Shown here: in pieces, positions 12,864-51,722 of the stretch
How the letters are laid out: every line of letters starts with the position of its first letter
How positions within the stretch are numbered: position 1 is the first letter of the stretch
Origin: Escherichia phage vB_Eco_F27
Strand: one strand, 5' to 3'
Sequence record: OP870146.1
Length of the DNA: 64,000 nt
Program-made: the position numbers and the translations under genes
Notes under the pieces: model-generated
Database searches by the model: none
Told to the model about the DNA's origin: nothing
Seen by the model: the letters and a program-made list of their open reading frames with translations, nothing else

Positions 12864-13133
12864 TTATTTCTGTGCAATTTCGATGTAAGTTTTCAAAATA
12901 TTTTGCCAATTAGGCATACCTTCTTGGACATATGCCGGAGAACCATCTTTGTTTTTGAATGATGCAAGTTTATCAGTGGCCCAATAACCTTTAGCTCGAG
13001 CTTCAGAATCAACTTTCATCCATACTTTGTTGAAGGCATTACCATTAACTTTTGCACCATATTTTTCTACTAACTTAACCGCTTCAGCTTCCAGAACTTT
13101 TAAAGTATCTCGTAAGAAACGTGCTTTAGTCAT
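12864..13133 (-). CDS. Hypothetical 89-aa protein, antisense insertion between late genes 23 and 24
   Basis: ORF with GAGGAG RBS, its own early-type promoter (GTTTAC-N16-TGtGATACT) at 13166-13193; stop codon abuts the gene 23 terminator hairpin. Confidence 0.6.
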   Translation of the reverse strand: MTKARFLRDTLKVLEAEAVKLVEKYGAKVNGNAFNKVWMKVDSEARAKGYWATDKLASFKNKDGSPAYVQEGMPNWQNILKTYIEIAQK

Positions 13134-13165
13134 TTTGTTTACTCCTCTGTAGTTGATAAGTCTAT

Positions 13166-13193
13166 AGTATCACATACCAAATACGTTGTAAAC
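13166..13193 (-). promoter_or_regulatory. Early-type promoter for the antisense ORF between genes 23 and 24
   Basis: Minus strand reads GTTTAC-N16-GATACT with TGn immediately upstream of the -10. Confidence 0.55.
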
Positions 13194-14552: not shown

Positions 14553-15551
14553 TTATGATACTAATTCAATCCATGCAGGACGCAGAACATCTTGCACCAT
14601 TCGGACTAATTCTTTCTTAACAAGATTCGGATTATCGGATGATGTTAATACAATACCTTCACGAGAAGTTTCTTCCAGAATATCTTGAACAGTCAATCCC
14701 ATCACTTTGCCAAAATCTTTTGGCGTTACAGTCCCAATCTTAGAAATCACATTATTAACACGATTTAATGTAACATAACAAGCTAGAACATCAAGCAAGT
14801 TTTTGTCAATTTCGGTTAATGGAAGCTGAGTTTTAATAGGCTTATCAGACTTTTTCTTTTCACTGAATTTAGAGTTCTTGCACTTAATAGCTACACGAGT
14901 ACCGTTTGGCAGCCATTTAGGGAAACAAGGCTTCAGAACATAACCTTCTGCTGTATTATCGCCAATAACATTAGCATCAAATACACAATTATTTGCTTCT
15001 ACAAGGTCTTCTGACGCAGTAGCATTATAAGCGGCTAAAACGGAATCAAGGTCATTTGGAATCGCGATAAGAGCATCGAATGTTCCACGTCCGAGCATTG
15101 GTGCCATTTTAAAACCGAATTCATTACAGAAATCTTGCATTTCGTAATCGGTCAAATACGTATTATCACCACTTTCTGTATTGATAAGGATATCGAACAC
15201 ATAAAAATCTTTTTCACCATAGTCAACACCTTTCTGTATTCCACCACCAGCGAATTCACCGAATACTTGATATGATACGGCTCGAGCTGTGTACATGAAT
15301 TCCTGAACGGCTTTAATAGCTTTATCATACTTCTTAAGTACGATTTCATAACCATAAAAATCTTCTGCTGGAAGAATAGGGCCTGTGCGCTTGGCGCATG
15401 TGACGTTGTCACGTTCAATTATTAACGAGAAGTTGGTCCCGTGGATTTTCTCACGTGCTACCCAAACACCAGTAGTCAAACCATTAGTGTAGAGTTTTTC
15501 AATAAACTTGTTGTTGTAGTGGTTTTCAAGACTGCTGTATTTCTTAAACAT
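14553..15551 (-). CDS. rnlB: RNA ligase 2 (Rnl2)
   Basis: 332 aa; nucleotidyltransferase lysine motif KIHGTN near the N-terminus; position next to gene 24 as in T4. Confidence 0.9.
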
Positions 15552-28176: not shown

Positions 28177-28469
28177 TTATTTACGGAATGAAAGGAATGC
28201 TGGTGCTCGGAATGGAGTATCATCTTTAGAGTATTTAACTAATACGACCATTGGTACCTCTGTTTCTAAATGACCTGTCACCACACCGATAAAAATTTGA
28301 TCAGTGTGCTCAGGGTCACGAAAGTTTTTAAGAGGTTCCATAGCAATATGGAATGCACCTGGGAATACTCGATTCAATTCGTCAATCACAGCTTCGTTAA
28401 AAGCATCATCCGCCGGGATAGCATCTTCAACTACTAGTTCTTGACCGTTAAAGCGAAGCATAGATTTCA
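28177..28469 (-). CDS. Hypothetical 97-aa early protein
   Basis: Start reassigned to the internal ATG (MKSMLRF...) preceded by GAGGAAAA RBS and an early promoter at 28501-28528; terminator hairpin downstream. Confidence 0.5.
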
Positions 28470-28500
28470 TAACGTTTTCCTCATGTTGTTGATGGGATGA

Positions 28501-28528
28501 TAGTATCACACATCCATGTGTTTGTAAA
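28501..28528 (-). promoter_or_regulatory. Early promoter for ORF 28177-28469
   Basis: GTTTAC-N16-TGtGATACT, then conserved leader CATCAACAACATGAGGAAAA before the ATG. Confidence 0.55.
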
Positions 28529-30616
28529 CTATCCTTGGACAAATTTAAACGGAACTGATTCTAAATCCATTAAAGATGCTAACAATTTCAAACCTTTAGG
28601 TGCACTAGTTTTTTCTACAAATGAGGAGAACGATACCGGCTCAACTGATTCGATTTCACCCGTCATAGCAACCACCTCGCCTGTTTCCATGAGAACATCA
28701 CCATCGTAAATGACAGCTTCATCTAACTGGTCTGAGGACATGACTTCAGCTTGAATAAATTTAAGGTTGGATTCTAAACCTGCACCAGTGTCAGATGACG
28801 CATCTGTAATTTTATTTATCTGCAAGAGAATGCCTCTAGGCAAAATAATTTCTTGCTCATTAGGGTGATTACTCAACTGTCCCGGATAAATCACGTTAAC
28901 TTTATGGGCGCCATCAATAGCCCATCCAACGTTAACACGGATTTGTTCTGGTGCATGCATAGCTGTTCTTACTTGACTAGGAGAAATAGTAACACCTTCG
29001 TCATTATTGTCAATGTTAAGCTCTTTGCGAACTTCTTCAGGAGCAAGTCCAAGGGCAACGTTCTCTTTAAACCCACCGAAAATAATAGGAGCTAGTGAAG
29101 TGGAAACATAGTTTCTGAAATAGAATACCTTATTTTTAACCATTGCTTCGTAAATAGGCATTCTGATAGACTGAGCTCTATATAACGTTAGTCCTTCAGG
29201 TAAACGGTCTCCATTTAAAAACGCCGAATCAAGACCATCAATAGCGCGTTTAACTTCATCTTCATCTGCAACATCGTAAAAATCTGGTTTATAACGACCT
29301 AACAACATATTATTGATATCGGTATACGCAGAAGAGGCATATTCACGAATAGCTCGTTTTTCAGCAACAGAGTATTGTTTAGGGTCCCGATTCATTGTTA
29401 TATTAAAGGTGCCTCTAGCCGATTCTCGTGCATAAGTATACATCACATTAGACAAGAACGCTGATTTACGTTGTTTCCAAGTTTTTTCAGATACTTCAGC
29501 TAAAACATCGTCGGCCAGTTGGAAATTATCACGTCTAAAATCTTCAAACCATTCGTCTTTAATAGAGTCTGCAATTTCATTTGCAGCTTCAACAAAAGCA
29601 GCTAATGCTTTAACAGATGTTGTTTTTTCAGTTTTAATTTTCTTAGCAAACTTTTCTAAAGTTGGCTTAATAACACTACCATAAGAAACTTCATCAGCAA
29701 ATCTAAAGGATTCATCAATACGATTATAAATCTTATTTTCGATATCAGCAACTAAAGTGCCTTTTGCTGTGGATGATGCTTGGGCCAGTACGATTTCATA
29801 TGCTTCAGGAAGTAATTCGGCTGTAGCTGGGCCGCTAACTTCTTTAGCAGAATTTTCGTATTTCTGGAATAACTCACCTTCTTGGCGGTCAGCTTCTAAA
29901 GATTGACTTGCTGCAATAGCACGACGAGAAATTTTAGTACGAGCAATAACAGGCTTATCTTTACGTTTTTCTTCTACAGCAGCAATAGAACCAGCGATAG
30001 CCGTTTCTTTGGTGACCTTTTCGCCGGTCTTTTTACTCACATAAACTTCGCCAACATCAGAATCTACTTTCGCGTACAACTCTGTGTTAATGTTAGGGAT
30101 GCCTTTAATATCTTCAATGTTGGCATTTTTACGAACCATCATCACATAGGTGTGTTTACCTGTGAATTGATACATTGCCGACAATACTTTAAAACGACCA
30201 CTGGTTTTAGTAGAAACTAAACGAGCAAGAAGAGTTTGAAGCTGCTGTCCGCGTCCTTTCAATTTCTTGGTAGGGAATCGGAACAGAACCGCATCCATAC
30301 GAAGAGCTTTAACCTGTTCATACACTGTATTGAAAATGGTGTTGATTGCATCAATAGGAGCAGGACCAAGGCCATTTTTCAATTCAGCTAGATTACCCTT
30401 TTCAGACAGACTCATAATAACAACATGAGCGTATTTGTCGCCAAGTTTAACTTGTTTTACAGCGTCGCCTTCGGAAAGGTAAGAGAATAAACGAACTACA
30501 ATATTTGTATCGATATCACCAATTTTCCAGACTTGTGGAACTTTAGCTTTAGGGTTCAAATTGACGACAGGAAGACTGCCTTCAGATTCAAACACTTCAT
30601 TTAATTGTTCAGACAT
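28529..30616 (-). CDS. alt: Alt-like ADP-ribosyltransferase (virion-packaged)
   Basis: 695 aa (T4 Alt 682 aa); position between gene 54 and DNA ligase as in T4; assigned by synteny and size. Confidence 0.7.
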   Translation of the reverse strand: MSEQLNEVFESEGSLPVVNLNPKAKVPQVWKIGDIDTNIVVRLFSYLSEGDAVKQVKLGDKYAHVVIMSLSEKGNLAELKNGLGPAPIDAINTIFNTVYEQVKALRMDAVLFRFPTKKLKGRGQQLQTLLARLVSTKTSGRFKVLSAMYQFTGKHTYVMMVRKNANIEDIKGIPNINTELYAKVDSDVGEVYVSKKTGEKVTKETAIAGSIAAVEEKRKDKPVIARTKISRRAIAASQSLEADRQEGELFQKYENSAKEVSGPATAELLPEAYEIVLAQASSTAKGTLVADIENKIYNRIDESFRFADEVSYGSVIKPTLEKFAKKIKTEKTTSVKALAAFVEAANEIADSIKDEWFEDFRRDNFQLADDVLAEVSEKTWKQRKSAFLSNVMYTYARESARGTFNITMNRDPKQYSVAEKRAIREYASSAYTDINNMLLGRYKPDFYDVADEDEVKRAIDGLDSAFLNGDRLPEGLTLYRAQSIRMPIYEAMVKNKVFYFRNYVSTSLAPIIFGGFKENVALGLAPEEVRKELNIDNNDEGVTISPSQVRTAMHAPEQIRVNVGWAIDGAHKVNVIYPGQLSNHPNEQEIILPRGILLQINKITDASSDTGAGLESNLKFIQAEVMSSDQLDEAVIYDGDVLMETGEVVAMTGEIESVEPVSFSSFVEKTSAPKGLKLLASLMDLESVPFKFVQG

Positions 30617-35367: not shown

Positions 35368-35397
35368 TTTATTCTCCAGATGTTTAAGTTGTTTGTT

Positions 35398-35438
35398 GGT
35401 ACAGGTCTATAATAACATAACCTGTACCAAAGTAAACT
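35398..35438 (-). promoter_or_regulatory. Early promoter embedded in a stem-loop (PeSL-like), upstream of ORF 35002-35367
   Basis: GTTTAC-N17-TATTAT; perfect 9-bp inverted repeat GGTACAGGT...ACCTGTACC brackets the spacer and -10. Confidence 0.6.
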
Positions 35439-35441
35439 GGT

Positions 35442-35852: not shown

Positions 35853-35882
35853 ATAGTAACACATCCTACAGGAGAGTAAACA
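35853..35882 (-). promoter_or_regulatory. Early promoter upstream of ORF 35442-35810
   Basis: GTTTAC-N17-TACTAT on the minus strand. Confidence 0.55.
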
Positions 35883-37486: not shown

Positions 37487-38057
37487 AAAAGTTTCGGATT
37501 TGTTCCCAATTCAGAGAACGAAGATTATTACGAGAGTACTGAATTACTTCAATACCGGCTTGTTTTAGAATGTCTGCCCAATTTTCAGGAGATCTGTCAT
37601 ATAATTCTGCGTATACAACCTTTTTAATACCTGACTGCGTAATAGCTTTAGTGCAATCAGGACATGGAGAAAGTGTCGTATACAACGTAGCACCTTCAAT
37701 AGAATTACCTTTACGAGCTGCAAACAAAATTGCATTCAATTCCGCATGGATTTCGTTATTAGCAGACCATGCACTATGAGCAGCCCGATGTTCTTTAGCC
37801 AAAACAAAATTATCCACCCGTCCAAATGCTGTAGTGCCTTCTTTAGGCCCAGCAACGATGACCGGGCTTGGTTTATTCTTCAACCAACCGTTTTCGGATG
37901 CATGTTCGCAACAGTTTGTACCACCTGAAGGAGAGCCATTATAACCTGTAGAAATAATGCGTCCATCTTTTTCAATGACGGCACCAACTTTCCATGAACA
38001 ACATTTTGATTCTTGAGAAATCAAATAAGCAATTTGAAGATATGTGCTAGCTTTCAT
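37476..38057 (-). CDS. cd: dCMP deaminase
   Basis: 193 aa (T4 Cd 193 aa); zinc-binding deaminase motifs HAE and PCxxC. Confidence 0.9.
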   Translation of the reverse strand: MKASTYLQIAYLISQESKCCSWKVGAVIEKDGRIISTGYNGSPSGGTNCCEHASENGWLKNKPSPVIVAGPKEGTTAFGRVDNFVLAKEHRAAHSAWSANNEIHAELNAILFAARKGNSIEGATLYTTLSPCPDCTKAITQSGIKKVVYAELYDRSPENWADILKQAGIEVIQYSRNNLRSLNWEQIRNFCGE

Positions 38058-39049
38058 TATTGAACCTTATTAATATAAGTTAACAGCTCTTTAGTTTGTT
38101 CCCAACTGATGCACGCATCGGTAACGGAAACGCCATAGGACATATTATCAGAAATTTTTTGATTTCCTTCATGTAGGAATGATTCTATCATAATTCCTTT
38201 GACCAAATCATTAGCTGCTAAATTTTTACCAATACCAATTTGATTGCTATAATGCCCAGCAGCGTTTGCATGGCTACAGTCAACCATTACATAATGATTC
38301 AGACCTACTGCACTTGCTTTGTTAGAAGCTTCTTGAATATCAGAAGAATGATAGTTCGGGCCGTTAGTCCCGCCACGCAATACGATATGCGTATTCTGAT
38401 TACCTTCAGCTTCAACAATGCCTACAGTACCATCGACGTCCATACCCATATACCGATGAGGCCAGGCGGCACTATACATCGCGTCTGTAGCTACTTTAAT
38501 AGAACCATTGGTTGCGTTCTTGAAGCCTACGCACATCGGTAGACCTGAAGCAATTTCACGATGTGTCTGACTTTCAGTCGTACGGGCGCCAATAGCAACC
38601 CATGAGAAAATACCAGAAAGATACTTAATCGTGAATGGGTCTAATACTTCAGTTGCTAATGGAAGTCCCATACGTAGAAGTTTACGACACAATGTTCGTG
38701 CAACTATAAGACCGTGGTTCATATCAAAACTTCCATCAAGATATGGATCATTTACAAGACCTTTCCAACCTACGGTAGTTCGAGGCTTTTCAAAATAAAC
38801 GCGCATCACTAACAGAACATTAGGAAGACGAGTTTGAAGTTCAGCCAGACGTTTGCCGTATTCAACAGCAGCAATAGGGTCATGAATTGAACAAGGACCT
38901 ACAACAATAAGTTTGCGTGGGTCTTCACCGTTCATAATCGAATTAACTTGTTCGCGATGAGAAGCCACTTGTGATGCGTAAGCTTCCGACAAAGGAATAA
39001 TCTCAGCCAGTTCTTTTGGAGAAATAAGTTTTCCGACGACAGGTAACAT
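38057..39049 (-). CDS. 3-deoxy-7-phosphoheptulonate (DAHP) synthase, class I AroG/F/H-like
   Basis: 330 aa; roughly half the residues match E. coli AroG as recalled, including GPCSIHD, VMRVYFEKPRTTVGWKG, IGARTTESQ(T/V)HRE, GFKN, ESxLxEGNQ, ITDACI; 1-nt overlap with the cd start. Confidence 0.85.
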   Translation of the reverse strand: MLPVVGKLISPKELAEIIPLSEAYASQVASHREQVNSIMNGEDPRKLIVVGPCSIHDPIAAVEYGKRLAELQTRLPNVLLVMRVYFEKPRTTVGWKGLVNDPYLDGSFDMNHGLIVARTLCRKLLRMGLPLATEVLDPFTIKYLSGIFSWVAIGARTTESQTHREIASGLPMCVGFKNATNGSIKVATDAMYSAAWPHRYMGMDVDGTVGIVEAEGNQNTHIVLRGGTNGPNYHSSDIQEASNKASAVGLNHYVMVDCSHANAAGHYSNQIGIGKNLAANDLVKGIMIESFLHEGNQKISDNMSYGVSVTDACISWEQTKELLTYINKVQ

Positions 39050-39169: not shown

Positions 39170-39406
39170 TTATAGTGTTCCATATACTCGAGTTGCTTCA
39201 ACTAAACCGTCACTGCCTAATTTAAGGCTAGTAATCTGGTCACCATCTTTAGGATTAACAATTATGAGAAAAGAACGTGGAGATTCTTGAATAACTCGTA
39301 ATGTTGCATCCTGGAAACGTTCAGACACTTTATTGATGAGTGCTTGAGCAAATTCTTTTACTTTAATCTGAAATTCGTGTACTGTAATTGGGTTTTCACT
39401 TAGCAT
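39170..39406 (-). CDS. Hypothetical protein
   Basis: 78-aa ORF with early promoter and conserved leader at 39407-39464. Confidence 0.45.
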   Translation of the reverse strand: MLSENPITVHEFQIKVKEFAQALINKVSERFQDATLRVIQESPRSFLIIVNPKDGDQITSLKLGSDGLVEATRVYGTL

Positions 39407-39436
39407 TTCTATTTCCTCATTTGTTGGTAGAGTTAT

Positions 39437-39464
39437 AGTATCACAACTCCACCATGTTGTAAAC
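39437..39464 (-). promoter_or_regulatory. Early promoter upstream of ORF 39170-39406
   Basis: GTTTAC-N16-GATACT, then leader CTACCAACAAATGAGGAAATAGAA before the ATG. Confidence 0.55.
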
Positions 39465-41532: not shown

Positions 41533-41589
41533 TTAGATTTCCTCAATTATCCATAGGAGCATTATACTCTGCTCCCGAGAGTTTGTAAA

Positions 41590-41814
41590 CTATTTTACTA
41601 AAGATTCAATATACTCATGAAGAGCTTTAGTCGCTACTGCCCACTTATTCTGATATTCATTTTTCAGATTAGCACGAGACTGAACTAACAAGCGGTCATT
41701 AGTCGGAGGCAAAGATTCTAATCGTTGAATCTGGCGTCCATAAATCATAGCCGCCATTTCAGATTCATAGATAAGCCCTTTAATGTATTCGTGCTGTTCT
41801 TTAGTCATTGGCAT
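41590..41814 (-). CDS. Hypothetical protein
   Basis: 74-aa ORF. Confidence 0.45.
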   Translation of the reverse strand: MPMTKEQHEYIKGLIYESEMAAMIYGRQIQRLESLPPTNDRLLVQSRANLKNEYQNKWAVATKALHEYIESLVK

Positions 41815-42095: not shown

Positions 42096-42448
42096 TCTGA
42101 GAGCTTCCTGAGGTCTTCTGCAAAGGAATCGAAGGACCTGTTGATTTGTTTTTCGACCAATCCTGGTTTACTTGCCACCACGTTCTTCTTCTTCGAATCC
42201 TTACGGAGCTTTTCATTTTCGGCCTTAAGTTGGTCAACTAAAACACGGTTCTTATAAGTCATTTCTTCGATTGACTGATATTGAACCTTGAAGTCGTCTA
42301 ATACTTTAGCATTGTTTTTAGCGGTCTCTTTGACAGAAGCTAATTCAGTATTCAACGAATCAACTTTGTTGTTTAAGACAACTATTGTTACCGTAGAAAC
42401 TAGAGCAAAAGCTGCTACTATAGCATAAATCGGATTTACTTTAAGCAT
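42092..42448 (-). CDS. Probable i-spanin (N-terminal TM helix plus coiled coil)
   Basis: 118 aa; hydrophobic IYAIVAAFALVSTVTIVVL then a charged coiled-coil-like region (T4 pseT.3 position). Confidence 0.6.
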   Translation of the reverse strand: MLKVNPIYAIVAAFALVSTVTIVVLNNKVDSLNTELASVKETAKNNAKVLDDFKVQYQSIEEMTYKNRVLVDQLKAENEKLRKDSKKKNVVASKPGLVEKQINRSFDSFAEDLRKLSE

Positions 42449-42936
42449 GTTTTAATAATCTCAATGATTTCATCTCGGGATAATCCGTTGATAAGAACGG
42501 TTTTCAAACCATCACACTGGATTTTGTACGATTCAAACAATACACACAACTCTTCTGCTGTATGATACGGACTTGAAATTCCGAGGCGGTTGAATTTGTC
42601 GGTAAGAGGGTCGCAAATAATGTAGAATTTTATACCAGCGATATGTACGTTTGGTTGACTAATATTAATGAACACATTAGCGTCATATTTAGTCAAATTG
42701 TTTTGAAGAAATTCTACCATGGCATTAACTGCTTCCGGCATCGCTTCGCGTTTCTCTTCAGCGTATCGGGTGGAATACTCTTTTTGTTTTACTTTCTTTT
42801 TAAGATTTTTGGCCAGTGTAACACGTAGGTCAGTAAGATAACCAACTGGACGTCCTTTCTTAAAGACCCGGATTCCGTCAGTTGTGTCTCCAAAAGCGGT
42901 TACGACCATATCGTTAGTAATCAATTGCATATTCAT
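42436..42936 (-). CDS. alc: Alc-like protein (host transcription unfolding/termination), by position
   Basis: 166 aa from the ATG preceded by GAGGAG RBS and an early promoter; T4 Alc ~167 aa and sits between rnlA and the spanins. Confidence 0.55.
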   Translation of the reverse strand: MNMQLITNDMVVTAFGDTTDGIRVFKKGRPVGYLTDLRVTLAKNLKKKVKQKEYSTRYAEEKREAMPEAVNAMVEFLQNNLTKYDANVFINISQPNVHIAGIKFYIICDPLTDKFNRLGISSPYHTAEELCVLFESYKIQCDGLKTVLINGLSRDEIIEIIKTCLK

Positions 42937-42966
42937 AATTTTCTCCTCGTGTTGTTGATAAAAGCC

Positions 42967-42996
42967 ATAGTAACACCTTCCTTGGTGTTTGTAAAC
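42967..42996 (-). promoter_or_regulatory. Early promoter for the alc-like gene
   Basis: GTTTAC-N18-TACTAT just after the rnlA stop; leader TATCAACAACACGAGGAGAAAA before the ATG. Confidence 0.55.
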
Positions 42997-44132: not shown

Positions 44133-44148
44133 TCAGTTAGTTTTTTTA

Positions 44149-44179
44149 AATTGTACCACAATCCTTGTGGTATGTAAAC
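44149..44179 (-). promoter_or_regulatory. Early promoter for rnlA
   Basis: GTTTAC-N18-TACAAT with internal inverted repeat CCACAAGGATTGTGG; -35 overlaps the denA stop. Confidence 0.55.
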
Positions 44180-44589
44180 TACTTTTTCTTATGTTGGATA
44201 TTCCAAGGCGGGTTGAACTTTTTGATAAAAAGTGGTTCTTCAAGATCCATTGTTGCGATGGTCATTGAACCGAGTTCATTGGTGACTGAAAGGTCAAAAC
44301 ATTGGCGGGCCCAGAATTCAACCTTTTTGCCTTGCATTAAGGCATCCAAAATCATAAGTGATTTTCTTGAATCTGAAGTCTGGTCTTTTCGATTTATGGC
44401 TGTTCGATAATAGTTAATGCGTTTCTTTAAATTCTTGGTTTTACCAATATACACAAGTTCGTCATCTATAGCAATAGCGTATATGACATTTTTCTTATTA
44501 GGGACATCAACTGTTTTAATTGTTGCATCTTCTAATAGCTCCAATTCTGTATATTTAATAAAGGAATATTCGGCGGCAATATCTTTCAT
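44179..44589 (-). CDS. denA: Endonuclease II (GIY-YIG family)
   Basis: 136 aa, same as T4 EndoII; GIY-YIG motif VIYAIAIDDELVYIGKTKNLKKRINYYR. Confidence 0.85.
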   Translation of the reverse strand: MKDIAAEYSFIKYTELELLEDATIKTVDVPNKKNVIYAIAIDDELVYIGKTKNLKKRINYYRTAINRKDQTSDSRKSLMILDALMQGKKVEFWARQCFDLSVTNELGSMTIATMDLEEPLFIKKFNPPWNIQHKKK

Positions 44590-51222: not shown

Positions 51223-51615
51223 CTACTTTTTAAAAGTGTTTTGTAAAAGTTTGATGATTTCGTCGACGTTGGTTTCATCTACGATACAATGGATTTTTGT
51301 TACACCTAAAGCTATACCTTCGTTAGTAGGTTGAGGCTTTACTAAATCTACCTCAGTAAAGTATTTGAACTCGTCAGGATAAATCTCAAAATAAGTTTCA
51401 ATTTCACCACCGGCAGAACATACAGTACCATCTTCCATAGTTACACTTACTACGTTTGACGTATCGCTATCATAATCAGGTTCCATTCCGTTTACAACAA
51501 AACTAGGCCCGTGGAGTTCAATCAATTTTAACATCTTAGCGTTATTATGTGGTGCTTCTTGAACAAAGTCATCTTTAAATAAAGGGTTAATGATATAAGA
51601 TTTTCCGATTTCCAT
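51223..51615 (-). CDS. Hypothetical 130-aa protein (T4 frd.2 position)
   Basis: ORF with early promoter and conserved leader at 51616-51673. Confidence 0.5.
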   Translation of the reverse strand: MEIGKSYIINPLFKDDFVQEAPHNNAKMLKLIELHGPSFVVNGMEPDYDSDTSNVVSVTMEDGTVCSAGGEIETYFEIYPDEFKYFTEVDLVKPQPTNEGIALGVTKIHCIVDETNVDEIIKLLQNTFKK

Positions 51616-51644
51616 TTTGATTTCCTCATGTTGTTGATAGGTCT

Positions 51645-51673
51645 ATAGTAACACATCTAGGGAAGAAGTAAAC
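51645..51673 (-). promoter_or_regulatory. Early promoter for ORF 51223-51615
   Basis: GTTTAC-N17-TACTAT, then leader CTATCAACAACATGAGGAAATCAAA before the ATG. Confidence 0.55.
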
Positions 51674-51692: not shown

Positions 51693-51722
51693 AGATACTC
51701 AAAAGGGAGACCGAAGTCTCCC
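51693..51722 (-). terminator. Intrinsic terminator after gene 32
   Basis: Minus strand GGGAGACTTCGGTCTCCC followed by TTTTGAGTATCTAT. Confidence 0.75.

Follow-up and report, generated by a model that had tools for sequence, protein, structure and literature searches.

The window analysed here, a stretch of 64,000 nucleotides from Escherichia phage vB_Eco_F27 (OP870146.1), is from a Mosigvirus (RB69-like) genome: it has ~96-98% identity to JS09, APCEc01, AV110 and ~150 other records, against only ~80% to the T4-type Tequatrovirus, and its gene order agrees with that of RB69. Strict GTTTAC-N15-19-TANNAT sites number 11 where 1.5 are expected, and every one is on the early (minus) strand. At four places on that strand the whole intergenic region, from stop codon to start codon, is occupied by a single unit of ~60 bp consisting of GTTTAC, a gap of 17-18 nt, TACTAT (in the form GTG(A/T)TACTAT), 6-7 variable nucleotides, the leader (A)TCAACAA(C)A(T/C)GAGGA(A/G)A, 5 nt and an ATG. 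The genes that follow are a frd.2 homologue, an alt.-3 homologue, cd.2 and alc. A first-pass annotation of this DNA had described four minus-strand copies of a promoter/leader unit ahead of unrelated genes, and both statements are borne out: -35, spacer, -10, leader and ATG are present in each copy, and the downstream genes fall into four different PHROG families (622, 1739, 1504 and 1253). Its coordinates were exact for 51616-51673, 39407-39464 and 42937-42996, whereas the copy it placed at 28470-28528 really lies one base further on, at 28471-28529.

The first cassette (51616-51673, -) follows the gp32 terminator and precedes the frd.2 homologue (130 aa, 51223-51615). Its -35 is at 51668-51673, the -10 TACTAT at 51645-51650, the discriminator agacct at 51639-51644, the leader ATCAACAACATGAGGAAA at 51621-51638, the spacer at 51616-51620 and the ATG at 51613-51615. 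The intrinsic terminator hairpin of gene 32 (51701-51722, -; GGGAGAC-TTCG-GTCTCCC, then TTTT) stands 27 nt upstream of the -35; it is the same in RB69, AV110 and the IMG/VR contig L005, and is listed as the TransTerm terminator “RB69ORF245c<--32” in the supplement of Nolan et al. (2006, PMC1524935). The second cassette (28471-28529, -) separates the alt stop from the alt.-3 homologue (97 aa, 28177-28470; PHROG 1739), with its -35 at 28524-28529, -10 at 28500-28505, leader at 28476-28493 and ATG at 28468-28470; here the G of the alt stop TAG is the first base of GTTTAC. Between cd.3 and cd.2 (78 aa, 39170-39406) is the third (39407-39464, -), with its -35 at 39459-39464, -10 at 39435-39440, ATG at 39404-39406 and a leader ACCAACAAATGAGGAAA at 39412-39428 that can be read as ACCAACAA-ATGAGGAAA. 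The fourth (42937-42996, -) runs from the rnlA stop to alc (166 aa, 42436-42936; PHROG 1253) and has its -35 at 42991-42996, -10 at 42967-42972, leader ATCAACAACACGAGGAGA at 42942-42959 and ATG at 42934-42936. In three of the copies the upstream stop codon touches or overlaps the -35 (TAGTTTAC, TAAtgGTTTAC). Upstream of the -35 the 51616 copy has gaaaaagtt, whereas the other three directly follow the 3′ end of the preceding coding sequence, in a genome of ~62% A+T.

The first-pass annotation had called the leader conserved, and on aligning the four copies we found that it is, with an identity of 14-18/18, while the other segments are near random: 6-11/18 for the spacer between -35 and -10, 1-3/6 for the discriminator and 1-3/5 for the spacer from Shine-Dalgarno sequence (SD) to ATG. 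The 18-mer ATCAACAACATGAGGAAA occurs exactly at 28476-28493 and 51621-51638 and with two mismatches at 42942-42959; with up to three mismatches allowed, these three are what the window contains, against 0.08 expected by chance from shuffles, the cd.2 copy (39412-39428) escaping this mismatch search through a 1-nt deletion. Further copies, which the annotation had proposed to look for, amount in this window to two partial ones. One, at 13134-13193 (-; ATCAACTACAGAGGAG), is an early promoter with an ATCAAC start box (ATCAACTAC) and the leader ATCAACTACAGAGGAGTAAACAAA, and it faces an 89-aa ORF (12864-13133) on the early strand, with late gene 23 (major capsid) on one side and late gene 24 on the other. 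The other, ahead of the 30.7 homologue (35409-35437, within 35394-35437, -), has the start region ACCAACAAACAAC and a longer leader. With these two partial copies, the set is graded and not a discrete group of four.

The four cassettes are orthologous to the RB69 early promoters Pe:125323, Pe:134561, Pe:138093 and Pe:146013, as predicted by Nolan et al. (2006, PMC1524935). The cassette before frd.2 corresponds to Pe:146013, that before alt.-3 to Pe:125323, and that before cd.2 to Pe:134561 as well as to T4 Pe133295 (annotated in the T4 record) and the JS10 hyp0210 promoter. Like T4 and RB69 early promoters, they combine a -35 GTTTAC, a TGn, a -10 and “additional regions of consensus” (Nolan et al., 2006, PMC1524935; Hinton, 2010, PMC2988021), and the C-rich -3 to -1 region noted for RB69 early promoters is found in them too (PMC1524935; PMC2988021). 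The published RB69 promoter model, however, has 51 nt and ends near the start site, without an ATCAA(C) box that runs on into the leader and SD.

How much of the conserved leader, then, is particular to these four copies? For comparison we assembled 78 early promoters with a start codon close downstream, drawn from four loci of T4, four of RB69 and part of JS10. After the -10, they read a-n-w-C-C-T | A-T-C-A-A, the last eight of these bases (positions 4-11) being present in 60-82% of promoters each, so that a start-site box CCT|ATCAA is common to most of them. From the inferred start (+1) to the SD, only 7.9% of the bases are G; 5′ UTRs have a median length of 23 nt, and the SD is of the GGAG type in 42 promoters, of the GAGGA type in 25 and of other types in 11. 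Older early-promoter compilations reportedly exist, by Liebig and Rüger (in 1989) and by Wilkens and Rüger. In T4 the commonest version of the start and leader is ATCAACTAC, and a long cassette, ...ttttttcacaaaacGTTTAC...TACTATacaactATCAACTACTGATACGGATTTGGAGAATAAAATG, recurs near-verbatim at at least five loci. The leader of the four cassettes is thus a start-site box, a nearly G-less stretch and a UGAGGA Shine-Dalgarno sequence, and much of it is generic: its first six bases are the family start-site box and its GAGGA(A)A is one of the two standard SD types, the U of UGAGGA being able, as we read it, to extend pairing to the 3′ end of 16S rRNA (UGAGGA vs 3′-AUUCCU). All that sets the four-copy subset apart is AACA in the middle and how exactly the copies match. 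The two exact 18-mers nevertheless exceed what independent draws from the family consensus would give, and selection alone is insufficient to account for them.

Comparison of flanking genes between relatives, another check that had been suggested, did reveal ORFs gained, lost or replaced next to three of the cassettes. At 51616 the evidence is the most extensive. Downstream of gene 32, RB69 and AV110 have the terminator, the promoter, ATCAACAAATGAGAGGAAAATAAAATG, ORF245c, ATCAACAAATGAGGAAATCAAAATG and frd.2, i.e., an ORF of 75-83 aa bracketed by two leader repeats, and in the second of these (...cacATCAACAAATGAggaaatcaaaATG, before frd.2) the TGA within ATGAGGA is the ORF245c stop. The window and contig L005 have a single leader without ORF245c. 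This uninterrupted form is found in at least 125 records and ORF245c in ~9 Mosigvirus genomes, among them AV110, which is one of the window’s closest relatives in the frd.2 region, so that presence and absence alternate among genomes that are >95% identical. When the haplotype of the promoter spacer (A or B) is set against ORF245c, all four combinations exist: AV110 (A, present), RB69 (B, present), the window (A, absent) and L005 (B, absent). This implies recombination, or recurrent indels, within the intervening ~25 bp. In addition, the window leader CAACAACATGAGG is one base off both RB69/AV110 repeats (CAACAAATGAG), which means that the window is not a simple deletion product of the sampled alleles that carry ORF245c. 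T4 has an unrelated gene, frd.3, with a different leader at the position downstream of gene 32, and frd.3 itself occupies a different locus, behind a different cassette, in each of T4, RB69 and JS10. By these genome comparisons, at least the 51616 copy can be demonstrated to be a junction for indels and recombination.

The other loci present a more varied picture. At 39407, the cassette after cd.3 drives an extra ORF of 184 aa in JS10, ahead of cd.2, and at the 28471 locus T4 has alt.-1 and alt.-2 upstream; no indel was seen at the alc cassette in any genome examined. Within-genome comparison of the alt.-3 and alc cassettes in the RB69, T4 and JS10 records showed that those of T4 (NC_000866 123033-123100 and 136276-136345) are identical at 53/55 positions from -35 to SD, spacer and discriminator included, and that RB69 and the window have different cassettes at these loci. 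This likeness suggests recent conversion or copying in the T4 lineage. The JS10 alt.-3 leader (ACACAAACATGAGGAGAACATT) is also the alc leader of an IMG/VR contig (L014), and the alc and alt.-3 loci look as if they had undergone gene conversion or cassette exchange.

The first-pass annotation likened the units to the mobile PeSL (promoter-early stem-loop) cassettes. These were described in RB49 and phi1 by Arbiol et al. (2010, PMC2839356), who mapped crossovers between the -10 and the ATG, and the concept was extended to PST/T4 and nt-1/KVP40 by Comeau et al. (2014, PMC4122927), with TTTACW-N17-TAYWAT as the PST/T4 promoter (PMC4122927). A PeSL comprises an early promoter, to which some copies add a stem-loop (between -35 and -10, overlapping the -10 or a short way upstream of the promoter), and at its 3′ end the SD and start codon of the next gene (PMC2839356; PMC4122927); an AT-rich tract before the -35 is a further feature. 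A promoter of this kind, GTTTAC(A/T), 17-18 nt and TACTAT, is present in all four cassettes, as is a GAGGA followed by the ATG of a PHROG-supported ORF. The two are 7 nt apart (6 nt at alc), leaving 5 nt between the 18-nt block of the leader and the ATG. Adjoining ORFs have been inserted, deleted or replaced between relatives. The cassettes show a PeSL-like arrangement: a compact intergenic unit, repeated before unrelated small ORFs, at indel or replacement junctions between close relatives, with the ORF245c junction falling in the same place as the published crossovers. The layout, the unrelated genes and the indel junction at 51616 thus uphold the comparison; recent mobility does not stand, promoters being present at the same loci elsewhere. 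The cassettes differ from PeSLs in that their four sites are positionally conserved across genera and not variable in themselves, and only one copy has a clear stem-loop, those of the other three being weak or missing. The literature that we searched contained no description of PeSLs in Mosigvirus.

The clear stem-loop is that of the 39407 copy, in which a 10-bp inverted repeat (GGTGGAGTT / AACTCTACC) encloses the -10 (DNA fold -6.4 kcal/mol, z = -1.7). The 42937 copy has a 6-bp hairpin (ACACC/GGTGT) in its spacer (z = -0.7) and the 28471 copy a 5-bp stem that is no better than shuffles; the fold test detected no stem-loop inside the promoter of the 51616 copy, which has the gene 32 terminator hairpin 27 nt upstream instead. 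Stronger examples are found at other early promoters of the window (35394-35439, 41545-41592 and 44135-44181, all -), where inverted repeats enclose the -10 or fill the spacer (z = -4.7, -2.8 and -2.4, respectively), that at 35394 forming an 11-bp hairpin around the -10. Hairpin arms vary between promoters and orthologues with compensating changes (GGGAGC/GCTCC here vs GGGACC/GGTCCC in T4). Among the 78 promoters, folding is better with a promoter’s own downstream 12 nt, at -7.29 kcal/mol, against -4.57 kcal/mol with those of another promoter (Wilcoxon p = 3e-4, an optimistic value given that the set includes paralogues and orthologues). The hairpin across the early-promoter family is real.

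We consider it likely that the four cassettes are members of the T-even early-promoter family in its RB69/Mosigvirus form, of the PeSL kind, and that their boxes are both under selection and serve as patches for recombination. Early transcription would be by the unmodified host RNA polymerase, as suggested by the match to the consensus and the orthology to predicted or annotated early promoters: its sigma-70 form would recognise GTTTAC and the TGn-extended -10 GTGnTACTAT, by analogy with the experimentally established early promoters of T4. Positional conservation across the family places the probable start, in this phage as in the others, at the A of CCT|ATCAAC, 7 nt past the -10. The resulting 5′ UTR of ~25 nt would be nearly G-free and unstructured and would lead straight into a UGAGGA SD, 5 nt and the AUG, and such a leader may well give immediate and efficient translation, behind what we predict to be a strong promoter. 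The three leaders that lack GGAG would, furthermore, escape cleavage by RegB, unlike the neighbouring GGAGAAYAAAA leaders.

Under this reading the resemblance between the cassettes has two reasons. The first is that the same functional boxes would be under selection in each copy, and the second is that the boxes would offer short patches of homology to the very active homologous recombination of the phage, which may homogenise the cassettes and may create deletions, insertions and swaps of the small ORFs that adjoin them. Comparative genomics indicates such a role for recombination at the frd.2 cassette and in the T4 alc/alt.-3 pair. Recombination between copies is probably what keeps the cassettes of this phage similar, and gene conversion could have produced the two exact 18-mers.

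The A/C-rich AAC repeats might be able to bind S1 or Hfq, and a different explanation of the conserved leader is that it is an operator at which an RNA-binding factor (RegA, RegB/S1, Hfq or an sRNA) co-regulates the four mRNAs. The conservation of the 18-nt leader, which far exceeds that of the spacer and discriminator beside it, and the two exact copies, which go beyond the prediction of the family consensus, would both be expected of an operator. However, the conserved block is a start box plus an SD, common to dozens of early promoters with unrelated genes, and RegB and RegA do not fit it. For strong RegB cleavage the consensus is GG*AGRAYARAA (Uzan and Miller, 2010, PMC3014915), and three of the four copies have GAGGAAA without GGAG and so are not RegB sites, alc (GGAGAAAAUUA) being a partial fit. 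The cassettes do share a short 5′ UTR, a purine-rich SD and a subsequent A-rich tract with RegB-sensitive early leaders (PMC3014915), but those three copies look like a RegB-insensitive alternative class. Leaders that do fit the RegB consensus (GGAGAAYAAAATG) belong to the promoters of the 30.7 and 30.8 homologues (35409-35437 and 35853-35881, -); these leaders are longer, ending at ~35367 and ~35810, and their ends, GGAGAATAAAATG and GGAGAACAAAATG, match the strong consensus exactly, unlike the GAGGAAA leaders. RegA operators are AU-rich and unstructured, overlap the AUG or lie just 5′ of it, and have a 5′ poly(A) tract (PMC3014915), whereas conservation in the cassettes is lowest in the 5 nt preceding the AUG (1-3/5) and the conserved block is C/A-rich and upstream of the SD. 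Structure in the first 70 nt of each predicted mRNA was not above that of shuffles (z from -0.07 to +2.79), the frd.2 leader being less structured than all of its 200 shuffles; no Rfam family matched anywhere in the window, and no antisense copy of the leader was found in it with up to three mismatches. The shared translational control site that the first-pass annotation had suggested, a dedicated translational operator, is therefore unsupported, and we regard such an operator as unlikely. The functional proposal that survives is that leaders of the GAGGAAA type should be insensitive to RegB.

Similarly improbable in our estimation is that the G-free AUCAAC(A/U)AC box at the 5′ end acts as an additional signal at the RNA level and that the GAGGAAA leaders form a separately regulated early sub-regulon. 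This box starts most T-even early mRNAs and is best preserved in the four leaders. It could then recruit ribosomes via S1, control stability in a manner dependent on the 5′ end, or mark the GGAG-less early messages that outlast RegB.

Still less probable is that a single mobile promoter cassette was recently copied or transposed into new intergenic sites in this lineage. A leader that is identical at 18/18 positions at two loci 23 kb apart is what such an event would leave, and the near-identity of the T4 alc and alt.-3 cassettes over their whole length shows that copying or conversion does occur. Against it stands the alignment: the four copies in the window are identical only in their functional blocks, the spacers, discriminators and SD-to-ATG spacers being near random, and hence are not recent copies. 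The sites themselves are occupied elsewhere, with T4, RB69 and JS10 all having promoters at the alt.-3, cd.3-downstream and gene 32-downstream junctions and at the alc position. For alc, the promoter is kept in 14 of 14 loci from IMG/VR whose proteins range from 99% down to 50% identity, in the form TAGTTTAC...GTGnTAnnAT, 6 nt, a C/A-rich start (ACCAACAA, ACACAAAC and others) and (A/C)TGAGGA. For each cassette, an early promoter is present at the same locus in T4, in JS10 or in relatives further removed, and to judge from these genomes the sites are positionally old. Nor does the exact leader turn up before other T4-like genes. Scans for the exact 18-mer, which by design return identical leaders and are uninformative on leader variability, gave seven matches in IMG/VR, the two T4-like ones both at alt.-3/frd.2 loci, and 74 in 241 million metagenome records, of which five were in promoter context, all at Mosigvirus alt.-3 or frd.2, and the remainder were chance matches in unrelated DNA; no T4-like promoter-borne copy beyond alt.-3/frd.2 was found in either collection. 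Finally, a chance resemblance confined to the generic promoter hexamers, which are common to all sigma-70 promoters, has next to no probability and is ruled out by the conservation of the leader, with three 18-mer matches against 0.08 expected.

We conclude that the cassettes are ordinary T-even early promoter/ribosome-binding-site units of the PeSL kind. In RB69 these promoters had been listed before, and the concept of the cassette is in the literature; our additions are a clean example from Mosigvirus and an account of the start-site and leader consensus, and the current understanding of T4 biology is unchanged. What Mosigvirus illustrates is how T4-type phages gain and lose small early genes, since both ORF245c alleles circulate among near-identical phages. 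It also illustrates that the T-even early “promoter” consensus continues through the start site into the ribosome-binding leader, and this extended consensus can help to annotate early transcription units, to recognise true start codons and to design expression cassettes that are strong and compact.

Several minor observations were made in the course of this work. Between cd.2 and cd the window encodes a DAHP synthase (phospho-2-dehydro-3-deoxyheptonate aldolase; 330 aa, 38057-39049, -; PHROG 5045, E = 9e-182), and RB69, T4 and JS10 have no gene at this position. We considered its insertion as a cassette-mediated event and rejected this, the junctions being tightly packed and without a promoter/leader module. 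The AUG within AUGAGGA was likewise rejected as the start of a small upstream ORF, which would differ in frame and length from copy to copy, has ACG at alc and lacks an SD of its own. In RB69 (NC_004928 134503-134547; L033 ~15504-15548) the usual cd.2 ATG is AGG, and an extra G in the SD (GAGGG) brings the leader’s upstream AUG into frame. It is this AUG, ~9 nt from the presumed 5′ end and with no SD, that the record gives as the start; this is either a sequencing/annotation quirk or a near-leaderless start. The exact 18-mer is also found in an unrelated 39-kb viral contig (L007/L061; IMGVR_UViG_3300027496_000004, Ga0208987_1000023), 1 nt after the TATAAT of ...tgtgataacattataata and 2 nt before an ATG, which resembles a promoter with its leader, in surroundings that are not T4-like. 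Lastly, RB69 frd.3 and ndd.1 (72055-72340 and 165011-165269; L036 and L037) share the cassette tail TATAGTagtcctATCAAAACACGAGGAATACAAAATGGCTAA(A/G) and form a near-identical leader pair in which the similarity reaches into the first codons.
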